Part shown: positions 7,900-49,077 of the stretch, in pieces
Position numbering within the stretch: the first letter of the stretch is position 1
Layout of the letters: each line of letters starts with the position of its first letter
The notes under the pieces: generated by a model
Told to the model about the DNA's origin: nothing
Database searches by the model: none
The model's input: the letters and a program-made list of their open reading frames with translations, nothing else
Assembly: GCF_013122565.1 (NCBI RefSeq)
Contig: NZ_CP053258.1
Reading direction: 5' to 3' (one strand)
Source: Escherichia coli
GTDB taxonomy: Bacteria > Pseudomonadota > Gammaproteobacteria > Enterobacterales > Enterobacteriaceae
Length of the DNA: 64,000 nt
Program-made: the position numbers and the translations under genes

Positions 7900-9029
7900 A
7901 CTAAGTGGTCTGCCATCATGGCATCCTGTTTTCTGGATGCCATCGCATGGCGCAACAGCACACCACCACAAGCCACCATCCCGCCGATCAACGCGGAAAG
8001 GATCACAATAATCGCCTTACCCGGACCGTCTTTTTTCACTGGCAATGACGGGCTTAACTGATATTTAAACGGCGTAAAATTCACATCGTTGACATTTGCT
8101 TTTGTTAATTGCTCGACAAGATACTGACGATTACGTAATTCACCATTCAGTTCCGCAACGTCAGTAACCGCTTTTTCAATTTCCAGTTTGCGTTCAATAC
8201 CGTCTGCGCCGAGAGAAATAGAGAAATCGGGGTCATCTTTAACGGCCTGACCATTACTGTATACGGGCTTTTTAATTCCTGCCGCGTTGGCAATGTCGAG
8301 TGAATAATTGAGGCGCTGAATGTTTGCATCAAGTTGATTTTTCGTTTTAATGCGATCCTGAGCCAGTTTTTCTTTTTCAAACTGGGTTTTGATCTCCAGC
8401 TTATTACGGACGTTTTCTAGCGACTCTTTCACCACCAACGCAGAGATATAATCGATATACCCGCTCAAAACGGTCTGCGCCTCTTCACTGGTTGGCGCGG
8501 TAAAACTTAGCGTCCAGGAGGTATACAGTGACGGTTCATCTTTTTTCTTACTGGCATTGTCATCAACCGCTTTCATTTTTTCGCTCAATGCGACAATTGC
8601 GCGATGCAAATCCAGTTCGTCGATTTTCGCCTCTTTTAATTGGTCCATCACATAAGGTGATGAACGCAGGTACTCTTCCAGCAAGCTAATTGACTGAAAT
8701 TTCTTGATAAACAGATTAAATACACCGCCACGGTCGATATTAACATCGAGATCAAGAACGCGGAGTTTGGTAAAGGTTTTCTCCAGGTCCTGCCACTGAA
8801 TGGCTTCGGCGGGAGTAATGACGGCTGAGCTGGTCCATTTTTGCGGCAGGATGAAAGAGATCAGCAAGCCTGCGCAGGCAAATGCAAAAACGACTGCCAT
8901 GACCGTTTTTTTGGCCCGCCATAAAACTTCGATTAGATTAAGTAAATCAATTTCATTATTACTGGGCGATGCCAGAGGATACTCAGGAAAATGAGCGTCA
9001 CTTCCCTGTTTAATATTCAGTGATGACAT
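7896..9029 (-). CDS. fepE: Wzz-family polysaccharide co-polymerase FepE (O-antigen chain-length regulator)
   Basis: ORF track 7896..9080; start placed at MSSLNIKQGSDAHFPEYPL (377 aa); convergent with fepC with a 4-bp overlap. Confidence 0.9.
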   Translation of the reverse strand: MSSLNIKQGSDAHFPEYPLASPSNNEIDLLNLIEVLWRAKKTVMAVVFAFACAGLLISFILPQKWTSSAVITPAEAIQWQDLEKTFTKLRVLDLDVNIDRGGVFNLFIKKFQSISLLEEYLRSSPYVMDQLKEAKIDELDLHRAIVALSEKMKAVDDNASKKKDEPSLYTSWTLSFTAPTSEEAQTVLSGYIDYISALVVKESLENVRNKLEIKTQFEKEKLAQDRIKTKNQLDANIQRLNYSLDIANAAGIKKPVYSNGQAVKDDPDFSISLGADGIERKLEIEKAVTDVAELNGELRNRQYLVEQLTKANVNDVNFTPFKYQLSPSLPVKKDGPGKAIIVILSALIGGMVACGGVLLRHAMASRKQDAMMADHLV

Positions 9030-9243
9030 GGGTATAACCTGAAAATGAGTCCAATAGGGGAAAATCTCCACGGCGCTCACTTTACCAGTTGGTGAGAATT
9101 ATCCGAAGCTGAAGTTTGTAAATTCCTTCCACTGAATGAAACATTCACTCTATTTAAGAGAAATGACCAACAAACATATAAATTAAATAAATGATTAACC
9201 CATAATTATTTCCTGTAATTATGGGTTAATAGATAATATTAAT

Positions 9244-12200
9244 TTACCTGTTTAGCGTTTCGCGAATAATCGGCCCAATTTTTTCAAACGCCCCTGGAGA
9301 GATAATATCCACATGCGCACAATCCTGACGATAGATATCCAGCCCGGCTATCCACGGCGACCAGGCGCGTTCGGGGCTCATACCTTCCTGAAGCGTACGT
9401 TCAGCAACAAACAGCGTCGCTCTACCATCAAACGGTACGCTATGAGCAGTCGTCAGCAGGCGCACAGCATCAGCGTAGTTGCCTTCAATGGTGGTAAACA
9501 ACTCCGTTGAAGTACTTCCCTGCTGTGCCGCCAGGAAGGCCTCGCGTTCGCGGTTAATCTCCGCCAGCACTTCCGGGTCCAGGCCATTAGCCTCTTTTTC
9601 CTGCCAGTTTTGCGTTTCTGGCGGCCAGGTATCCAGCAAGCCAAGAAATGCCACCTGTTCGCCACGGGCACGCAGTCGCGCCGCAATACCCTGCGCCAGC
9701 GTACCGCCCAGCGAATAACCCAGCAGGTAATAAGGGCCGTGCGGTTGTTGCTCAAGTAACGTTGCCAGATGCGCTTCGCAGACTTCATCCAGATTTGCCG
9801 CGGTCTGCATGGGGCCATTGGGGCGCGGCGACTGAATGCCGATAATCGACCATTGTGGATCGAGATAACGCGAGAGCACGCTGAACTGCCAGGCAAAACC
9901 GGACGCAGGATGGAAACAAAACAGCGTCGGGCCATTACCTTCACGCAACGGCAGAATGGTTTCGAATCCCATGCGCCGGGAGCTGTCCTCTTCACCATCA
10001 ATAATCGTTGCCAGTTTGGCGACGGTTGATGCGACCATCACCTGCCCCGGCGTCACCTGACGGGCAAACTGCCGACTTAACTGCGCTGCCAGTTTCATTG
10101 CCAGTAGCGAATGACCGCCTAGCGCGAAGAAATCAGCATCGGCATCCTGCACGTCACAACCCAGCAACGACGCGAATGCCGCGGCGATAATCGTTTCACT
10201 GCCCGCTTTCGGCGCACGCCCCGGCGCTTGTGCTTTCAGTTCAGGCAACGGTAAGGCTTTGCGATCCAGCTTGCCGTTGGCGCTAAGAGGTAACTGTGGA
10301 AGTTGCAGCAGAACCACGGGCACCATATGTGGTGGCAATGTTTCGCGAAGCTGCGCCTGTAATGCGCTGGTATCCAACGGCAGGCCCGATTGCGACACCA
10401 GATAGCCCACCAACTGACGCGCATCACCACCGGTGGCTGCCGCCTGGTTAATCACACAGGCGTGGGTAACGGCTTGTTCGACACCCGGCAGCGCCTGCAT
10501 CACGCGATCGATTTCGCCCAGTTCGATACGCTGCCCGCGAATTTTTAGCTGATCGTCACTGCGCCCGAGGTATTCCACCGCGCCGTTATCGAGCCAGCGG
10601 GCAACGTCTCCGGTACGGTACATCCGTTCACCTGGGGCAAAAGGATCGGCAATAAAGCGGCTGGCGGTCAGATCGGGTCGTCCAAGATACCCCTGCGCCA
10701 GTTGAATGCCGGTGAGATAGAGATCACCCGCCACACCCGGCGGCACCGGATGCATCATCGCATCGAGAATGCGCAGGCCCGTATTCCACACCGGATAACC
10801 AATCGGCACACTGCTGCCGCGTACCTGTGCCAGTTCCTCGCCAAAGGCCGGATACCAGCTCACATCTACCGCTGCTTCCGTCGGGCCATACAGATTATGC
10901 AACGGCGCGCCGGTTAACTGTTGCCATTCGCGGCATAAATCAGCCGGTAAGGCTTCACCACTACAGAAAACCTGTTTCAACGTCGCGCAACTCTGGCGAG
11001 CGGTTTGCGGCGTCAGCGATGCAACAAATGCCGCCAGCATCGACGGCACAAAGTGCGTGGTCGTTACGCCATATTCGGCAAAGAATTGCTGCATAGCGAG
11101 CGGGTCGCGGTGCGCTTCCGGTTCAGCCATCACCAGTTTCGCCCCGGCAATAAACGGCCAGAAAAACTCCCACACCGAGACATCAAAACTGCACGGCGTT
11201 TTTTGGGCAACGACATCTTCGCCTGTAAGCGGATAATGATTTTGCATCCACAACAGGCGGTTGACGATAGCCGTCTGCCCGACCATTACCCCTTTCGGCC
11301 TGCCGGTGGAGCCAGAGGTAAAGATGATATAAGCCGTGTGATGCGGTTGTGAAAGTTGCAGCGGCGCACTGCCCTGCGGTGTAAGCGGGGCGTTATAGCA
11401 AAGGCTGGTTAAATCTGGAACATCAACAAAGCGCGGCAGTTGATCGTCGGTGGTGATTAACAGCGACGGACGCGCATCTTCCAGCATCATTTTCAGGCGA
11501 TCGTCCGGATAGCCGGTATCCAGCGGTAGCCAGGCCGCACCAGCTTCAACAATCGCATGTAGCGCCAGGGTCAAAAAGACCGAGCGCGGTAATGCCACCG
11601 CCACGCTGTCCCCTGGTTTAACGCCGTGCTCACGCAGCAGATTCGCCAGCGCCACCACCTGCTCGCGCATTTCCCGATAGCTGAACTGGTAACGCGCATC
11701 TGCCAGCGCCGGAGCATCCGGTGTTTTTGCCGCTTGTTCTGCCACCAGCGCGCTAAGCGTGGTTTCTGGAATCTCAACCTGAGTGGCGTTGATCTGCGCC
11801 AGCTGCGCGTATTCACCTGGCAGCATAATATCGACATCGCCGCACAACAGCGCCGGATCCGCGGCGAATTGGGCGATCAGCATTTTCAGGCGTTCAGCAT
11901 GCTGGATTAACGTTGGCTCAGCGTAACGCTGTTTATTGGCGAGGATTTCAATACTCAAATCACCGTGTTCATCCGGGAACAGGGCCAGTTCAAGGTCATT
12001 AACCGGACCGGTTGCCAGGGTATGGGTTTGCGCCTGAACATCAGGAATATCCAGTTGGTAATCAAAGACCTTGATATTGAGTACCGGACCAAACAGGGGT
12101 TCATCACCTGCCGCTCGCCCGCTGTCACGGACAATTTGTTCGGCATCGTAACGTTGATGGCGACGCATTTTTTTCAGTTGAGCCGCCAGTCGGGTTGCCA

Positions 12201-41137: not shown

Positions 41138-41214
41138 TGGCGCGCCCTGCAGGATTCGAACCTGCGGCCCACGACTTAGAAGGTCGTTGCTCTATCCAAC
41201 TGAGCTAAGGGCGC
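41138..41214 (-). tRNA. argU: tRNA-Arg (anticodon UCU)
   Basis: Minus strand reads GCGCCCTTAGCTCAGTTGGATAGAGCAACGACCTTCTAAGTCGTGGGCCGCAGGTTCGAATCCTGCAGGGCGCGCCA: 7-bp acceptor stem, TCT anticodon in the CTTCTAAG loop, GGTTCGAATCC T-arm, encoded CCA. Confidence 0.92.
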
Positions 41215-41456
41215 GTTGATACCGCAATGCGGTGTAATCGCGTGAATTATACGGTCAACCCTTGCTGAGTCAATGGCTTTTGATCTGGTTGCTGAACAAG
41301 TGAACGACCGCGTCTGATTTTCTGATTTATTTCGCTATAGCGGCAAACAAATGCACACCGCTGCGCGTCTGAATCAAGAAAACCCGTATTTTCATGTATC
41401 AAAGTACAATTTACCGCCCTAACGGAAAATTGTCCGCTCCTATGAGACTGGTAACT

Positions 41457-42089
41457 ATGAAACCAACGTCGGTGATCATTATGGATACTCATCCTATCAT
41501 CAGAATGTCTATTGAAGTTCTGTTGCAAAAAAACAGTGAATTGCAGATTGTCCTGAAAACGGATGATTACCGCATAACCATCGATTATCTCCGAACCCGT
41601 CCTGTTGATTTAATCATTATGGATATAGACTTGCCCGGAACAGACGGTTTTACCTTCCTGAAAAGGATCAAACAAATCCAGAGCACAGTGAAAGTGTTAT
41701 TTTTATCATCGAAATCAGAATGCTTTTATGCTGGCAGAGCGATACAAGCTGGTGCTAACGGTTTTGTCAGTAAATGCAATGATCAGAATGATATTTTTCA
41801 TGCCGTTCAGATGATCCTCTCCGGATACACGTTTTTTCCCAGCGAAACGCTTAACTATATAAAAAGCAATAAATGTAGTACGAATAGTTCAACGGTCACT
41901 GTGCTATCTAATCGTGAAGTGACCATATTACGTTATCTAGTTAGCGGATTATCTAATAAAGAAATTGCCGATAAGTTATTACTTAGTAATAAAACAGTTA
42001 GTGCGCATAAATCTAATATTTATGGCAAGCTAGGTTTGCATTCAATTGTAGAGCTTATCGACTACGCCAAATTATACGAATTAATATAA
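41457..42089 (+). CDS. fimZ: LuxR-family response regulator FimZ (SfmZ)
   Basis: ORF track 41394..42089; start placed at MKPTSVIIMDTHPIIRMSIEVLL (210 aa); receiver domain plus C-terminal LuxR HTH. Confidence 0.88.
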   Translation: MKPTSVIIMDTHPIIRMSIEVLLQKNSELQIVLKTDDYRITIDYLRTRPVDLIIMDIDLPGTDGFTFLKRIKQIQSTVKVLFLSSKSECFYAGRAIQAGANGFVSKCNDQNDIFHAVQMILSGYTFFPSETLNYIKSNKCSTNSSTVTVLSNREVTILRYLVSGLSNKEIADKLLLSNKTVSAHKSNIYGKLGLHSIVELIDYAKLYELI

Positions 42090-42091
42090 TA

Positions 42092-42607
42092 TTAATTATA
42101 ATTGATCATAAATATCGCATCCGCTTTCGCCACACCTGGCCGAACACCGCTGGCTAACGCTCGATAATTGGCAAAAAAGTTTAGTGTGACATTGCCATTT
42201 GCATCTACTTCCTCAGTCGGGCTCGCCGCTCCCAGTGCGAGCCGGGAGCGATCGCTATTACGTAATTCGATGGCGACGGTTTGTGCCATTGCGGGATCAT
42301 CCAGAGCCAGCAGGTTGGCATCAGATGCCGGCGTTCCCGTAAATAAAATCGCGACCGAACCCGGAGGACATCCCTCCAGCCGCAGGCTAAAAGGGACGAG
42401 TGCCGTGGTATCGCCAGCGGTCAGTAGTTGTGTCGTAGGCCATCTGCCTAAATCTACCGTCTTATCATTATCCGCTGTGTTTACGGTACAAGAAAAATCA
42501 ACCACGTTACCGTGCAAATTGATATTAATCGTTCCTAAAGGGTCAGCTGCCCATCCACTGGAACTCCACAGTAACCCGCAGAAACAGCTAAAGAGTACTC
42601 TTCTCAT
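42092..42607 (-). CDS. sfmF: fimbrial minor subunit SfmF
   Basis: ORF track 42092..42802; start placed at MRRVLFSCFCGLLWSSSGWA (171 aa, signal peptide); fimbrial subunit fold. Confidence 0.85.
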   Translation of the reverse strand: MRRVLFSCFCGLLWSSSGWAADPLGTININLHGNVVDFSCTVNTADNDKTVDLGRWPTTQLLTAGDTTALVPFSLRLEGCPPGSVAILFTGTPASDANLLALDDPAMAQTVAIELRNSDRSRLALGAASPTEEVDANGNVTLNFFANYRALASGVRPGVAKADAIFMINYN

Positions 42608-42617
42608 TCTCCGTACC

Positions 42618-43625
42618 TCATTGATAATCGACGCGTAAATACCCCAGCGCGCTAAACGGCCCTTCGGTCGGTTTTTGACCGGTAATACTGATAGGCCAGG
42701 CGCGAAGTGTGACATTGGCTGCCGCAGCTGCATCCAGACGGAAAGGAATAACGCTATTGAGATCGTTAGGCGTGATCGGCGTATCGTTCTGATCGGCGAC
42801 AATAAAACCTAAATCCTGATTGTCCGACACCATCGCCTGACCAGAAACGGCACTGGCTTCCAGACGCATTGTTAAATAAGCCTGCGCAGCAACATTCGTA
42901 CATTTGACCGCAATGCTCTTGGTTTGCGGCATGACACCAGCAGGCCGATTACCCGGCCCTGCCGCACTAAATAACGATGCGCCGATATCACCAAAATCAA
43001 ATTCAACAATCTGCCCGGCATTTAATTCGCAGTTTTGCGGTACTTCAACCCGGCCACCAAAACTAATGGTATAAACAGGTGTAACCAACGGATCGTAAGG
43101 CGTTGATGTCACATACACGGTAAACATCACCTGTCTGGGGATCTCCACCATGTTAATAAAGGGCCGAATAACCTTTAAACGAAATATCAAACGAGAATCC
43201 ATCACCCCGAACGGAAGGTTTTGCGAAACGTTAGGATCTGTTCCCATACGAATATAATTTTGCGGGGGAAATTGAATATCCATCACACTATCAACCAGAC
43301 TCATCGCACCTAATAGATAATCATTTAATTGCATATATTTATAATTATCGATAGTTTCCTGAACAATAAAGTTAGTGACATAACTACGGTATGTATAATT
43401 CACCAGCGTGCCGGGTGGACAAATTGCTGAGACACCTACCCAGCCGGATTTTTCCGGTAAAACAACAATCTGCCCTGGCTGGTTATTGGTGCTATTAAAG
43501 ACATTTGAGAGATCATAGTGTTCATCTTCTGCTACGCCAGTACTATTTGCACAAACAGTAGCCCAGGATATGTTTGCCAGACACAAACATGCCATCGCCA
43601 ATAATAATCTGCAGATTATCTTCAT
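42618..43625 (-). CDS. sfmH: fimbrial adhesin-like protein SfmH
   Basis: 335-aa ORF MKIICRLLLAMACLCLANISWA...; the true start may be a downstream Met. Confidence 0.83.
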   Translation of the reverse strand: MKIICRLLLAMACLCLANISWATVCANSTGVAEDEHYDLSNVFNSTNNQPGQIVVLPEKSGWVGVSAICPPGTLVNYTYRSYVTNFIVQETIDNYKYMQLNDYLLGAMSLVDSVMDIQFPPQNYIRMGTDPNVSQNLPFGVMDSRLIFRLKVIRPFINMVEIPRQVMFTVYVTSTPYDPLVTPVYTISFGGRVEVPQNCELNAGQIVEFDFGDIGASLFSAAGPGNRPAGVMPQTKSIAVKCTNVAAQAYLTMRLEASAVSGQAMVSDNQDLGFIVADQNDTPITPNDLNSVIPFRLDAAAAANVTLRAWPISITGQKPTEGPFSALGYLRVDYQ

Positions 43626-43637
43626 TGATAATTTCCT

Positions 43638-46247
43638 TTATGAGCCAGGATGTGTGCAAACTGCCGAAATAACAGTGACGGCTTGCTGTAAGCTTTGCTT
43701 CGGCAATACATAGTGCGCAATGCAGCGTGAGTTCGCGCCGTCTCCCCACTGAACCAGTAATTCACCAGACAATGGCGCACCACTTAAATAAACTTGCCCG
43801 TCATCACCCACCATACTGGTTATTCCGGTACTGTTTTCCCGTACCAGTGATCCAAACGGCACCGGTTTTCCGCCCTGGGTAACGGTAATGAGCGCCCGCA
43901 CGCCTATGCGGGTATCAAAATTGGCACGAACCAACGCGCCTTGCGTCGGCACAACGCTGCTAATATTTTTTTCAACATCGATGGAATTCCCCATCGTATT
44001 GGTATCAAGCGCGATACGGTTATACCGATAAACCGTGGCATACGGCATCACCGCATAGCCGCGCCAGTCGGTTAAAATGCCAGTTTGATTTTCAATGCGT
44101 ACACCGCCTGCGCCAGGCGCTTTAATCAAAACATTGGTATCCCCTAAAGGCTGGCTCAGCGTTATGCCATTTTCATGCCCGACCACACCGCCAGACAGCT
44201 GCCAGTTAACGTCATGTTGATCGCGGTCGTAGTTATACCCGACTCCCAGCGTACCGTAAGCGGCCTGCCAGTTTGCCGTGGCGCTGCCCGTATACCCATT
44301 ATTCGAGGTATCACCCTGGCTTACGTGATAACTCAGGTTGTGGCCTTCCAGTAAGGTCCCACCTACACCTGCCAGCCAGCTATTTTGCCCGTTGCTGTTA
44401 CGGTTGGCGTTAAAGGAGGCATAAGCGCGGTCGAGCGCATTTTCCCGGGTGTAGCGACGTTTGGTCAAAACATTGAAAGGCACTGAAACATTAAGTCCGA
44501 CAATACGTTCGTTATCGGGGATCCCTACAGATTCATTCCACGAAAATGAGAGCGAATAACTGATGCCAACCCAGCTGCTGGTATACCCCACCTGATACCA
44601 CGTATCTGAATCCGAAGTATTCCAGTATTTTTGATGGGTACCAGAAATATAAAGCGAGCCAAAGTCATTAAGTGATTGTGAAATATTTAACTGCAAACGG
44701 TCTTTACGGCTAAAGCGTAAATTGTGGTAATTCACGATTATCGGTTCATCCCGATGCTCACCGTCATAATCGTAATCATATTCGTACCCCTCCATTCGAC
44801 GATACGCAACATCATCAAGGGTATAAAAACCTTGTGTCGAATAGCGGTAACCCATTAACTGAAAATTGGTGCCGAAGGTGTTCATCGATTTCGCATAGAG
44901 GAAGCGAATGGAATCCCCCTCATGACGACTGTCGTCGGCTAACTGGCTGCGCGCATGGGTCACATCCAGCGACACTGCGCCCCAGTTCCCGAGGTTGCGC
45001 CCCAGCCCTAATAAAAAGGCGGTGTAATTGGCAGATAATTGCGTCCCGCCGTAGGCAGTAAATTCCTGTGGTAAACCGCCGAGTGCCGTGCCCTGAAAAA
45101 AGAAAGGCGATGATTGCTGACTATTACCGCTACGAAAATCGCCCGCCGTCAGGTCAAATTTGAAACGCCCTTCGCGTTGTAAAATTGGCACTGTTGAATA
45201 CGGAATAGTGTAATTCTGCTGATTGCCATCGCGTTCGTCGATGGTGACGTCCAGATCGCCATTTGAAGATGTCGGGTGCAAATCTGTAATTTCAAAAGCG
45301 CCGGGGGAAACATAGCTTTGATAGATAATAAAACCATTTTGCCGAATCGTTAGCTGGGCCGCCGTACGGGCAATCCCACGTACTGTTGGGGCAAACCCTT
45401 GCTGGCTATCAGGATACATATTATCGGAAGAATAAAGCCGTACACCACGAAATCCAACACCATCGAAAATATCACTTCCTGTATTGCCGTCTCCCATTAC
45501 CAGTTCACTTTTCAGCGGAATAATGGCGCGCTGTACCCAGGTGCCAATATTATTCCACTGTTCTGAATGATATCCATTTCCGCGAAAATAGTTCCAGGAA
45601 CCATTGTTGCGTAAACGCCACGGGCCAATATTAATCCCGCTGAGCTCACTAAAAAAATAGCTATCGTTACCATTACCTCTGTTACCGGTGAAATTATAAT
45701 TCAGGAGTAAAGCAGGAATACCTTCATCCCACTCTTCAGGCGGAATGTAACCGTGAGCGCTACTCAACAACGCTATCTGAGGAATAGTGATGTTCAGGCG
45801 CATCGCTGCAAAATCAAAGTTAATTGTGGCATCAGGTACAGCTTTCAGTAAATTGATGCATTTATTGTTTTGCTGCTGGGCTAACTCGGGAAATGCACTG
45901 CTATTAAGGCCAATTCGTTCAAGGAGTACCTGGTTAAAACAGGGCATTAACCCACCTGATTTATCACCTGTATTTTCTGTTGTCGATTCAAATACGATAT
46001 CCTGTGAACCAATGAACTCATCATTACGCCAGAGATCCACCCGATACACGCCCGCAGGTTGATGATTACCTCTCTCAAAGCGCGATAAATCAGCAACGGA
46101 TGTGCCATTCTCTAATAAAAATGCCGGGTTGAAATAACTTTCCGCATAGCTTAAAAAGGAGGGTAAAATGGCAAGAGATGAATAACAAATTCCGGCCAGA
46201 CACCAGGTATACCTCTGCGGAATATCCGTAGTAGTGGGTATTTTCAT
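43638..46247 (-). CDS. sfmD: fimbrial outer-membrane usher SfmD
   Basis: 869-aa ORF typical of chaperone-usher ushers. Confidence 0.9.
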
Positions 46248-46277
46248 AATTAGCTCTGATATTGTCAGATGATTCGG

Positions 46278-46970
46278 TTAGTTTAAGTTCACTTCTCTGA
46301 CCGGGGTTACTGAACCATAATCATTAACGGTCTGAAATTTCAGCTTTCCCTGCACTCCTGAGGGTAAGGGAATTTGTGAATTAACTCTGGGTGCAGCCAT
46401 AGCATTCCCCAACTTTTGGCTGCCCACTTGTAAGTTAACCAGGGTGACATAAAAAGGTGATGGATTATGAACATTGATATAGTTACCGGATCGCGAAAAC
46501 TTGAGTGTGTCCGGCGCTTCTGCGGGTAATTCTTGTAATTGAATTGGACGGAGAAATAACTTCATGCGCGATAAAATCGCCAGTTGCAAAACATTCCTGC
46601 CGTTCAATGCATTTTTATCTACCGAAGGGATCGTCTTAACATTCATCCAGAACAGAGACTCACGATCTGCCGCCAGCGGTGGACCGGTGTAAATAATACG
46701 CAAAGTATTTTCGCTTTTGGGTTCACTAACAAACAGTGGAGGTGTAATGATGAATGACTTTTCTTTTACACCGCTGCTGTTTTCAATCCACGAATTGACC
46801 AGAAAGCGCTCATTGGTATGGCTATTTCTAATCCATACCGCAGTCTGTTTAGCATCAGCGGGATAAATAATACGCGTGGCACCTAATGCGATCCCTCCGG
46901 CAGCATGGGCGCTGGCCGAAATGATTAAATAAAATATAATGAGCATCAATAACTTTATTTTAGTCATCAT
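46278..46970 (-). CDS. sfmC: periplasmic fimbrial chaperone SfmC
   Basis: 230-aa [26 protein letters not shown]... (PapD-like chaperone). Confidence 0.9.
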
Positions 46971-47189
46971 AGTTAATACGCCTTGTGTATTCCTGACGGC
47001 AAAAATAAGAAATATAAAGAAATGATTGCTTTGGTTTCTTACAACACATCATTCCCTTTTCATTTAATAAAGCGGCATGATACAAAGTGAACATGATTTC
47101 GATTTACATTGCCACCATACCGCTTCAGACAACCGGTACATTACTTTGTTATAAGACGTGGTATATAATTCAAAACAACGTGGTTTTGA

Positions 47190-47732
47190 TTATTCGTATC
47201 TCATAATAAAAGTCGCGTCAGCATTTGCTTGCCCTGCTGATGCACTTGTACCGGTGCCTTTATAACGTGCAGAAAAATGAAGAACGTTGGTCCCGGGGAT
47301 CAAGTTCTGGTTGGTTGAGAAGCTATTCCCATCAGGTTTGAGAATTGCGGATGTATTATCAAGTATTTCAATACCGACACCCGTTGCTGTTGTTGTATTG
47401 GTACTGGATGCAATGGCCAATAAATTATCATTGATTGCATCAGCCTGACCAGAAAATGCAACGGCAGCATTAGCGGCAACAACAGGATCGCAGTCGTTCA
47501 ACTGTATAGTGAATGGAATTAATGCAGAGGTATTACCAACAGCATTGAAAATATCGGTACGATATTGACCGAGTGTGACAACCTGGTCTGCCGAGTCAGT
47601 ATTCACTGAACAGGCAGCATTCACCAGTTCGCCTTCAAAGTGAATTGTACCGCCATCTACAACGGCAGCATAACTACCCGTAGCGGCGAATAGTGCGGCA
47701 GCCAGCGCAGACGAAATAAATCTTAATTTCAT
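47190..47732 (-). CDS. sfmA: fimbrial major subunit SfmA
   Basis: ORF track 47190..47765; start placed at [22 protein letters not shown] (180 aa). Confidence 0.88.
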
Positions 47733-48210
47733 ATATATTCCTTCAATCTCATTTATCGACTCCACATCCGTATATAACCGATTACTTTATTTAAGACACT
47801 GATAGTAGTAAATTCCTTTTTATCCTCTAAGAATGTCTTAATTGAAAATATGCACTCTATTCTAAAAAATAGAGAGCCCCGTTAGATGAATACTTCCGCG
47901 CAAAATATATTCAACACAAATATAGACCTGAAGCGGTAAATTACCAGGCTGAAAATTCTTTTTATATTGTCAGGTATTTCTTAAATTATCTTAATCCTTT
48001 GACAAGGAAATAAGTCAGTTCCAGATTTACAACGCCATCATGGACGAAAAATGAAGCTTTCAATCTCAGCGACCTCAGCGACGGTGCGCCTAACCTTCGC
48101 AAGAGGCGCTTCACGCGATAAATCTGAAACGAAACCTGACAGCGCGCCCCGCTTCTGACAAAATAGGCGCATCCCCTTCGACCTACGTAACAGATGGAAT
48201 CCTCTCTCTG

Positions 48211-49077
48211 ATGGCAGCAAAGATTATTGACGGTAAAACGATTGCGCAGCAGGTGCGCTCTGAAGTTGCTCAAAAAGTTCAGGCGCGTATTGCAGCCGGA
48301 CTGCGGGCACCAGGACTGGCCGTTGTGCTGGTGGGTAGTAACCCTGCATCGCAAATTTATGTCGCAAGCAAACGCAAGGCTTGTGAAGAAGTCGGGTTCG
48401 TCTCCCGCTCTTACGACCTCCCGGAAACCACCAGCGAAGCGGAGCTGCTGGAGCTTATCGATACGCTGAATGCCGATAACACCATCGATGGCATTCTGGT
48501 TCAACTGCCGTTACCGGCGGGTATTGATAACGTCAAAGTACTGGAACGTATACACCCGGACAAAGACGTAGACGGTTTCCATCCTTATAACGTCGGTCGC
48601 CTGTGCCAGCGCGCGCCGCGTCTGCGTCCCTGCACCCCGCGCGGTATTGTCACGCTGCTTGAGCGTTACAACATTGATACCTTCGGCCTCAACGCCGTGG
48701 TGATTGGCGCATCGAATATCGTTGGCCGCCCGATGAGCATGGAACTGCTACTGGCAGGTTGCACCACCACCGTTACCCACCGTTTCACTAAAAATCTGCG
48801 TCACCACGTAGAAAATGCCGATCTACTGATCGTTGCCGTCGGCAAGCCGGGCTTTATTCCTGGTGACTGGATCAAAGAAGGCGCAATTGTGATTGATGTC
48901 GGCATCAACCGTCTGGAAAATGGCAAAGTTGTGGGCGACGTCGTGTTTGAAGACGCGGCTAAACGCGCCTCATACATTACGCCTGTTCCGGGCGGCGTTG
49001 GCCCGATGACGGTTGCCACGCTGATTGAAAACACGCTACAGGCGTGCGTTGAATATCATGATCCACAGGGTGAGTAA
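48211..49077 (+). CDS. folD: bifunctional methylenetetrahydrofolate dehydrogenase / methenyl-THF cyclohydrolase FolD
   Basis: 288-aa [26 protein letters not shown]... Confidence 0.95.

Follow-up and report, generated by a model that had tools for sequence, protein, structure and literature searches.

The window, the whole 64-kb stretch of Escherichia coli DNA analysed here, opens with a lambdoid prophage (1-41122) ending in intD, followed by tRNA-Arg(UCU) (41138-41214), fimZ (41457-42089) and, on the minus strand, sfmF, sfmH, sfmD, sfmC and sfmA; beyond these lie folD, ybcJ, ybcI and cysS. All sfm open reading frames and fimZ are intact, and nothing lies between fimZ and the tRNA gene. The prophage, inserted at tRNA-Arg (argU) beside intD, is full-length, with complete head, tail and terminase modules, and carries DLP12-type genes (essD, rrrD, rzpD, quuD, rusA, ybcK-ybcO, emrE and a porin gene); the K-12 DLP12 remnant at the argU site is not known to carry such modules. 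In the fimbrial cluster (42618-47732), PGAP assigns the names FimA, FimC and 'FimH, D-mannose specific adhesin', which looks like name transfer from a Salmonella-type family. The literature treats these genes as Sfm and reports an absence of mannoside binding (PMC3604780).

The interval between sfmA and folD is bounded by two divergent start codons. sfmA starts at 47732 on the minus strand (ATG complementary to 47730-47732), with an AGGA Shine-Dalgarno sequence ahead of it, and its product opens with a typical signal peptide beginning MKLRF. The folD ATG lies at 48211 on the plus strand. The 478 bp given for the spacer in the first-pass annotation agree with these codons and with the RefSeq annotation; the interval is 100% identical to that of E. 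coli strain PapRG-06-5 (NZ_CP048605.1). An in-frame GTG at 47765 was rejected as the sfmA start and regarded as an ORF-finder artefact, because all orthologs begin at the MK... methionine. The features discussed below are the following.

47733..48210, no strand: whole sfmA-folD divergent intergenic region, 478 bp, with gene starts as read in the sequence and as annotated by RefSeq in the identical strain.
47733..48010, minus strand: AT-rich sfmA promoter and leader, delimited by GC profile and homology; main part of the published K-12 'promoter island'.
47750..47759, minus strand: TCGATAAATG, agreeing at 9 of 10 positions with the high-affinity H-NS motif TCGATAAATT and lying 18-27 bp before the sfmA ATG.
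47919..47924, minus strand: putative sfmA -10 element TATATT, aligning with the Salmonella fimA -10 element TTTAAT.
47979..47995, minus strand: tandem heptamers ATTAAGA (47995-47989) and TTTAAGA (47985-47979), candidate degenerate FimZ boxes by alignment with the Salmonella FimZ-protected region holding AATAAGA repeats.
48011..48126, no strand: spacer block between the two promoters, 49% GC, variable and, by comparison, part of the sfm-bearing haplotype.
48065..48082, plus strand: 9-bp tandem repeat, CTCAGCGAC twice, variable in copy number within E. coli, with a single copy in K-12 and O145.
48127..48210, plus strand: core-genome folD promoter and short leader, common to E. coli genomes with and without the sfm cluster.
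48136..48164, plus strand: predicted folD sigma-70 promoter from a promoter scan, with -35 CTGACA, a 17-bp spacer and extended -10 TGaCAAAAT.

Base composition divides the interval into unlike parts. The whole spacer has 39.1% GC compared with 52.2% for the window, and the sfmA-proximal segment (47733-48010), at 30.6%, is the lowest-GC 278-bp stretch in the window, within the lowest 0.09% of such stretches. Its AT content is thus far above that of its surroundings, as in targets of H-NS. The window has three other low-GC troughs (41817-42140, 46910-47226 and 9007-9288), the first two of which also lie inside the sfm/fimZ cluster. In contrast, the GC content of 48011-48126 is 49.1% and that of 48127-48210 is 53.6%, or 51% for 48011-48210 together. 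The earlier description of the region as very AT-rich therefore holds for 47733-48010 and fails for the remainder, about 40% of the interval, which has normal GC, belongs to or would buffer the conserved folD promoter, and had been overlooked.

Only two open reading frames of at least 20 aa lie inside the spacer, one of 35 aa on the plus strand (48051-48158) that starts with ATG and one of 60 aa on the minus strand (48038-48220). A 1-bp indel breaks the frame of the former in K-12, 28RC1 and FORC_029, three of the five E. coli strains aligned. Both sit in a block largely missing from E. albertii, and neither is conserved outside E. coli. Since the 35-aa frame is broken in most of these strains and its block is largely missing from E. 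albertii, we concur with the initial judgement that the interval holds no convincing ORF. RefSeq annotates nothing inside the spacer, either in K-12 or in the window's own strain. A scan of 47000-49000 against Rfam 15 at E <= 10 returned no family match, the best scores being 10-19 bits against thresholds of 43-100 bits (E of at least 2), and a terminator scan placed no site within the spacer and its sole site inside folD. The five E. coli spacers, K-12 included, differ at only 24 of 480 alignment columns. By segment, this within-species variation amounts to 8 of 279 columns in the AT-rich part and to 14 of 117 in the middle block, the highest of the three segments.

We searched the spacer with megablast against 5426 complete E. 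coli genomes. Matches were obtained in 5424 of them, 4174 of which carry at least 80% of the spacer, and the 84 bp before folD (48127-48210) were matched in all 5424. To compare species, six spacers were aligned (E. coli, E. albertii, two Citrobacter, Pseudocitrobacter and Salmonella). Across these six species (five genera), 55 of the 84 folD-proximal positions are invariant, as are 46 of 278 in 47733-48010 and 4 of 116 in the middle block. The predicted sigma-70 promoter listed above (CTGACA-17-TGaCAAAAT) is the only strong folD-facing promoter-like site in the conserved segment, and both of its hexamers are invariant in all six species. From its position, folD transcription would start near 48171 and produce a leader of about 40 nt, which is predicted to be unstructured (fold z = +1.7). 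On this length and the absence of structure, a riboswitch or attenuator in the folD leader was rejected. Literature searches yielded no usable paper on a mapped start site of sfmA or folD.

Immediately upstream of the folD -35 element (48120-48141; spacer positions 60-100 of the Salmonella contig L084), the Salmonella and Citrobacter sequences ACACAAACGTTAAC and ACGCAAACGAAAAC resemble a PurR operator half-site. The E. coli counterpart is the weaker CTGAAACGAAACC.

The sfmA side has a different character. A consensus scan found three promoter-like sites in the spacer, compared with 0.40 +/- 0.71 per 478-bp bin, all of them facing folD, and this count is not above that of shuffles of the region. 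In the sfmA direction no site reached the threshold of 9 of 12 consensus positions, and the best candidates match the -35 consensus at only 3 of 6 positions; such weak -35 elements are as expected of an activator-dependent promoter. -10-like TAnnnT hexamers are abundant, with 23 in 47733-48010 against a window mean of 5.2 per 278 bp (4.4-fold). A-tracts number 6, compared with 5.6 in shuffles, and hence show no enrichment beyond base composition. The E. coli sfmA-proximal 270 bp (30.4% GC) are AT-richer than every ortholog (35.6% in E. albertii, 37.0% in Salmonella, 36-38% in Citrobacter and 40.7% in Pseudocitrobacter), which fits either selection for silencing or simple decay.

The orthologous Salmonella promoter supplied landmarks for placing the sfmA start. 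Two landmark sequences published for the mapped fimA promoter of Salmonella, AAAATAAGA (-100 to -92) and ATTAAAAGA (-51 to -43), the latter overlapping the FimZ site (Baek et al., PMC3203922), each occur once in the spacer of the Salmonella contig L084, and both place +1 at spacer position 353. This placement gives Salmonella fimA a 194-nt leader and the -10 element TTTAAT, which aligns with E. coli TATATT (47924-47919). The E. coli spacer thus has both the position, upstream of a fimA ortholog and divergent from folD, and a putative -10 element at the aligned place of a fimA-type promoter. By homology, sfmA transcription would start near 47912 with a leader of about 180 nt; a second TATATT would place the start near 47897. 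Calling the whole interval an untranslated region was accordingly loose: the term suits this presumptive leader, whereas the remainder is promoter DNA of two genes. The fold of the sfmA leader is unremarkable (z = -1.6). Within it, an imperfect 10-bp hairpin on the minus strand (47852-47877; GCUCUCUAUU / AAUAGAGUGC followed by AUAUUUUC) is weakly terminator-like, although the terminator scan did not pick it up and E. albertii does not share it.

The regulatory features of the Salmonella promoter are only partly recognizable. The exact AATAAGA heptamer, which forms a pair between -98 and -47 in Salmonella, is absent from the E. coli spacer. The second Salmonella copy aligns with TTTAAGA (47985-47979), and ATTAAGA (47995-47989) lies roughly where the first would be, with a start-to-start spacing of 10 bp compared with 27 bp in Salmonella. 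The degenerate form [AT][AT]TAAGA occurs four times in the 278 bp against 0.83 expected from dinucleotide shuffles, about 1% of which reach four, in a test chosen post hoc. Because of this choice, and because the heptamers are not conserved in E. albertii, we only infer that ATTAAGA and TTTAAGA may be FimZ boxes. No paper was found in a literature search for FimZ activating sfmA in E. coli. The Salmonella regulator set is also incomplete, fimY and fimW being absent from the E. coli cluster in the window.

Functional evidence on sfmA silencing comes from the K-12 literature, the present strain being read from sequence. The K-12 folD(-)/sfmA(+) spacer corresponds to promoter island 557105_351 (Panyukov and Ozoline 2013, PMC3661553, Table 1). 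These authors mark it as bound by H-NS according to the ChIP data sets of Kahramanoglou and Oshima, and they compare it with Salmonella folD-fimA (PMC3661553). Poor expression of sfm, its functionality if artificially driven and its repression by H-NS are stated in PMC5797941 with reference to Korea et al. 2010. sfmHF is up 2.6-fold on SlyA overproduction (Curran et al., PMC5797941), and sfmA and sfmH are up after treatment with the Rho inhibitor bicyclomycin (bioRxiv 10.1101/2023.10.23.563548). The proposal of a silenced, cryptic fimbrial promoter is supported by these K-12 data, both for H-NS binding by ChIP (PMC3661553) and for repression (PMC5797941). In the window, matches to the H-NS motif, taken as quoted in PMC3661553, are at chance level (5 found, 4.4 expected), with one in the spacer. 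Our simple scans, with a higher site density and the 4.4-fold excess of TAnnnT, point in the same direction as the published island list, although they are cruder than the PlatProm criterion.

The middle block (48011-48126) is present as a single copy in 4299 of the 5426 complete E. coli genomes. A 12-nt inverted repeat bounds 48018-48130, with an inner palindrome GCGAnGGT-N7-ACCnTCGC, and the block folds better than shuffles on both strands (z of -2.5 and -2.9 here, -2.1 and -2.9 for the K-12 allele). We rejected a dispersed repeat or MITE, since no genome with the block carries more than one copy. Beside the polymorphic CTCAGCGAC repeat, a 1-bp indel at 48107 is likewise polymorphic in E. 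coli. As the block lies upstream of both putative promoters, it need not be transcribed. A function for it is unproven and unlikely; that it buffers the active folD promoter from the silenced sfmA promoter is purely inferential.

Comparison of flanking regions indicated that the cluster is old and missing from part of the E. coli genomes. In a search anchored on FolD, an sfm-type fimbrial cluster divergent from folD was found, among the matches listed, in E. albertii (L004), Citrobacter werkmanii and Citrobacter sp. FP75 (L006 and L007) and Pseudocitrobacter faecalis (L005). The Salmonella enterica contig L084, reached via a FimA homolog, carries its fim cluster divergent from folD across a 546-bp spacer. 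Wurpel et al. and Kisiela et al. conclude that sfm and the Salmonella fim cluster are orthologs sharing one chromosomal location; they regard the cluster as ancestral in the two genera, with losses in phylogroup B2 and E. fergusonii (PMC3559732, PMC3604780). With the cluster lying beside folD in Salmonella, Citrobacter, Pseudocitrobacter and E. albertii, and two papers calling it ancestral (PMC3559732, PMC3604780), the first-pass label 'horizontally acquired' is not supported in any recent sense, and on this synteny horizontal acquisition of the cluster appears doubtful. Because the cluster is ancestral to several enterobacterial genera, being AT-rich and H-NS-bound need not mean recently imported.

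About one fifth of E. coli genomes are without the sfm cluster, with the breakpoint within the spacer near 48127. In BH100 (L003), an example of this type, the match to the spacer is limited to 48127-48210, the 84 bp nearest folD. The tRNA-Arg gene with its 104-bp flank connects to about 48127 through some 82 bp matching nothing in the window, and fimZ and the whole sfm operon are absent. This junction indicates a variable segment of about 6.8 kb (window 41319-48126), the right edge of which falls inside the spacer under study. RefSeq predicts a 65-aa hypothetical protein across the junction (L003 5847-6044; junction L003 5815-6084), which is probably spurious. FACU 2024 (L002 5248-6182) presents another arrangement, with IS1A between tRNA-Arg and folD; the strain lacks fimZ, the sfm operon and the AT-rich promoter, and its sequence matches the window again from 48021, beside IS1. 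Inside the E. coli cluster, a 219-bp spacer of 34% GC (46971-47189) separates sfmA from sfmC at the position taken in Salmonella and Citrobacter by fimI, a second pilin gene. A tblastn search with Salmonella FimI matched only the paralogs sfmA and sfmF, which indicates that fimI has been lost from the E. coli cluster.

Taken together, we consider it likely that the interval is a composite, back-to-back control region that combines a conserved folD promoter with an H-NS-silenced, AT-rich sfmA promoter and leader and a block of normal GC between them. Its anatomy, conservation pattern and synteny are established by the present comparison, and H-NS binding and repression by the K-12 literature; the interval itself is real, ordinary and already described. 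On the folD side, 48127-48210 would supply an extended -10 sigma-70 promoter and a short leader lacking structure for constitutive, housekeeping expression of folD-ybcJ. On the opposite side, 47733-48010 would act as the promoter and roughly 180-nt leader of sfmACDHF, an ortholog of the Salmonella fimA promoter that has drifted to 30.6% GC and keeps a -10-like TATATT, no usable -35 and only degenerate FimZ-type heptamers. H-NS would coat this AT-rich DNA and Rho would reinforce the silencing, so that the sfm operon stays off, and its transcription would need an H-NS antagonist or an activator, such as SlyA or FimZ, in a species that lacks FimY and FimW, the co-regulators present in Salmonella. 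The 116 bp of normal GC (48011-48126) would separate the silenced promoter from the active one.

Of the other readings, we give a minor but real weight to the spacer of a dying operon, in which AT-richness and promoter-like hexamers are by-products of relaxed selection and AT-biased mutation, and the activator circuit has been lost so that no working switch is left. The E. coli segment is indeed AT-richer than every ortholog (30.4% GC over the sfmA-proximal 270 bp versus 35.6-40.7%), with 54 AT-increasing and 34 AT-decreasing substitutions reported (PMC3661553); its FimZ boxes are degenerate, fimY, fimW and fimI are missing, and the cluster has been lost in about one fifth of E. coli genomes, including by IS1-associated deletion. 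The SfmA donor strand also has a 5-residue deletion, and natural expression is not known (Kisiela et al., PMC3604780). However, all sfm ORFs and fimZ are intact in the window, five strains differ at only 8 of 279 columns in the AT-rich part, sfmA diversity is reported to be low (PMC3604780), and the operon is functional under an artificial promoter and responds to SlyA and H-NS (PMC5797941). A more specific role for the hairpin block, with 48018-48130 as a boundary stopping H-NS spread onto the folD promoter or as an operator for some regulator and, together with the re-spaced TTAAGA heptamers, as a mark of E. coli-specific rewiring of an ancestral FimZ-controlled promoter, seems to us improbable.

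We rate still lower a hidden product of the interval, whether a small protein from the 35-aa ORF or a small or cis-regulatory RNA from the hairpin block. The ATG start of this ORF, the better-than-shuffled folding on both strands here and in K-12 (z -2.1 to -2.9) and a mention of short RNAs from the K-12 promoter island (PMC3661553) would be consistent with it. Yet the frame is broken in three of five strains, the block is mostly absent in E. albertii and is the most variable of the three segments within the species, no Rfam match appears even at E <= 10, and a z near -3 for one hand-picked stretch is weak evidence. A phase-variable invertible promoter, like fimS of the E. coli type 1 fim operon, has next to no likelihood and was rejected, although the spacer contains a fimbrial promoter of about 300 bp, AT-rich, with several short imperfect inverted repeats. 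Every full-length match listed among the 4174 genomes with at least 80% coverage aligns in a single collinear piece, as do the five aligned strains; no recombinase gene was found in or beside the cluster, the repeats are as short and imperfect as chance would give, and inversion is reported not to occur at the orthologous fimA promoter of Salmonella (PMC3203922).

Read as a back-to-back control region, the interval offers a textbook-style example in which a silenced, AT-rich fimbrial promoter lies some 200 bp away from a housekeeping promoter that is active, and it matters little beyond tidy annotation. The breakpoint near 48127 is of practical use as a marker of sfm presence or absence, and it delimits a minimal folD promoter, the sole part of the spacer common to genomes with and without sfm.

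A close counterpart is PfimA of Salmonella enterica, with FimZ and FimY as activators and Lrp and H-NS as modulators. It occupies the same position divergent from folD and shares the bipartite composition (49% GC in the folD-proximal 200 bp, 37% in the fimA-proximal 270 bp), the long leader, the aligned -10 and TAAGA-containing heptamers upstream. The two differ in sequence, with 135 of 278 positions identical in the sfmA-proximal part and the exact AATAAGA repeats of Salmonella replaced in E. coli by ATTAAGA and TTTAAGA, and in their setting: Salmonella expresses fim fimbriae and has fimY, fimW and fimI, whereas the E. coli sfm operon is cryptic and has none of the three.

The K-12 island 557105_351 is the same locus, with the same AT-rich stretch and surplus of promoter-like signals, and H-NS binding and poor transcription are reported for it; its spacer measures 470 bp instead of 478 bp, as the present one has two CTCAGCGAC copies and one T fewer. 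The authors of the promoter-island study call sfmA 'alien', with Salmonella as the donor, while the present synteny and published work on fimbriae favour vertical inheritance followed by loss. H-NS-silenced promoters of further cryptic chaperone-usher operons in E. coli, among them yad, yeh and elf/ycb, likewise combine AT-rich upstream DNA and poor laboratory expression with H-NS repression and SlyA-type counter-silencing (PMC5797941). In contrast to these, the silenced promoter of sfm lies about 200 bp from the housekeeping promoter of an essential-pathway gene, folD, that must stay active.
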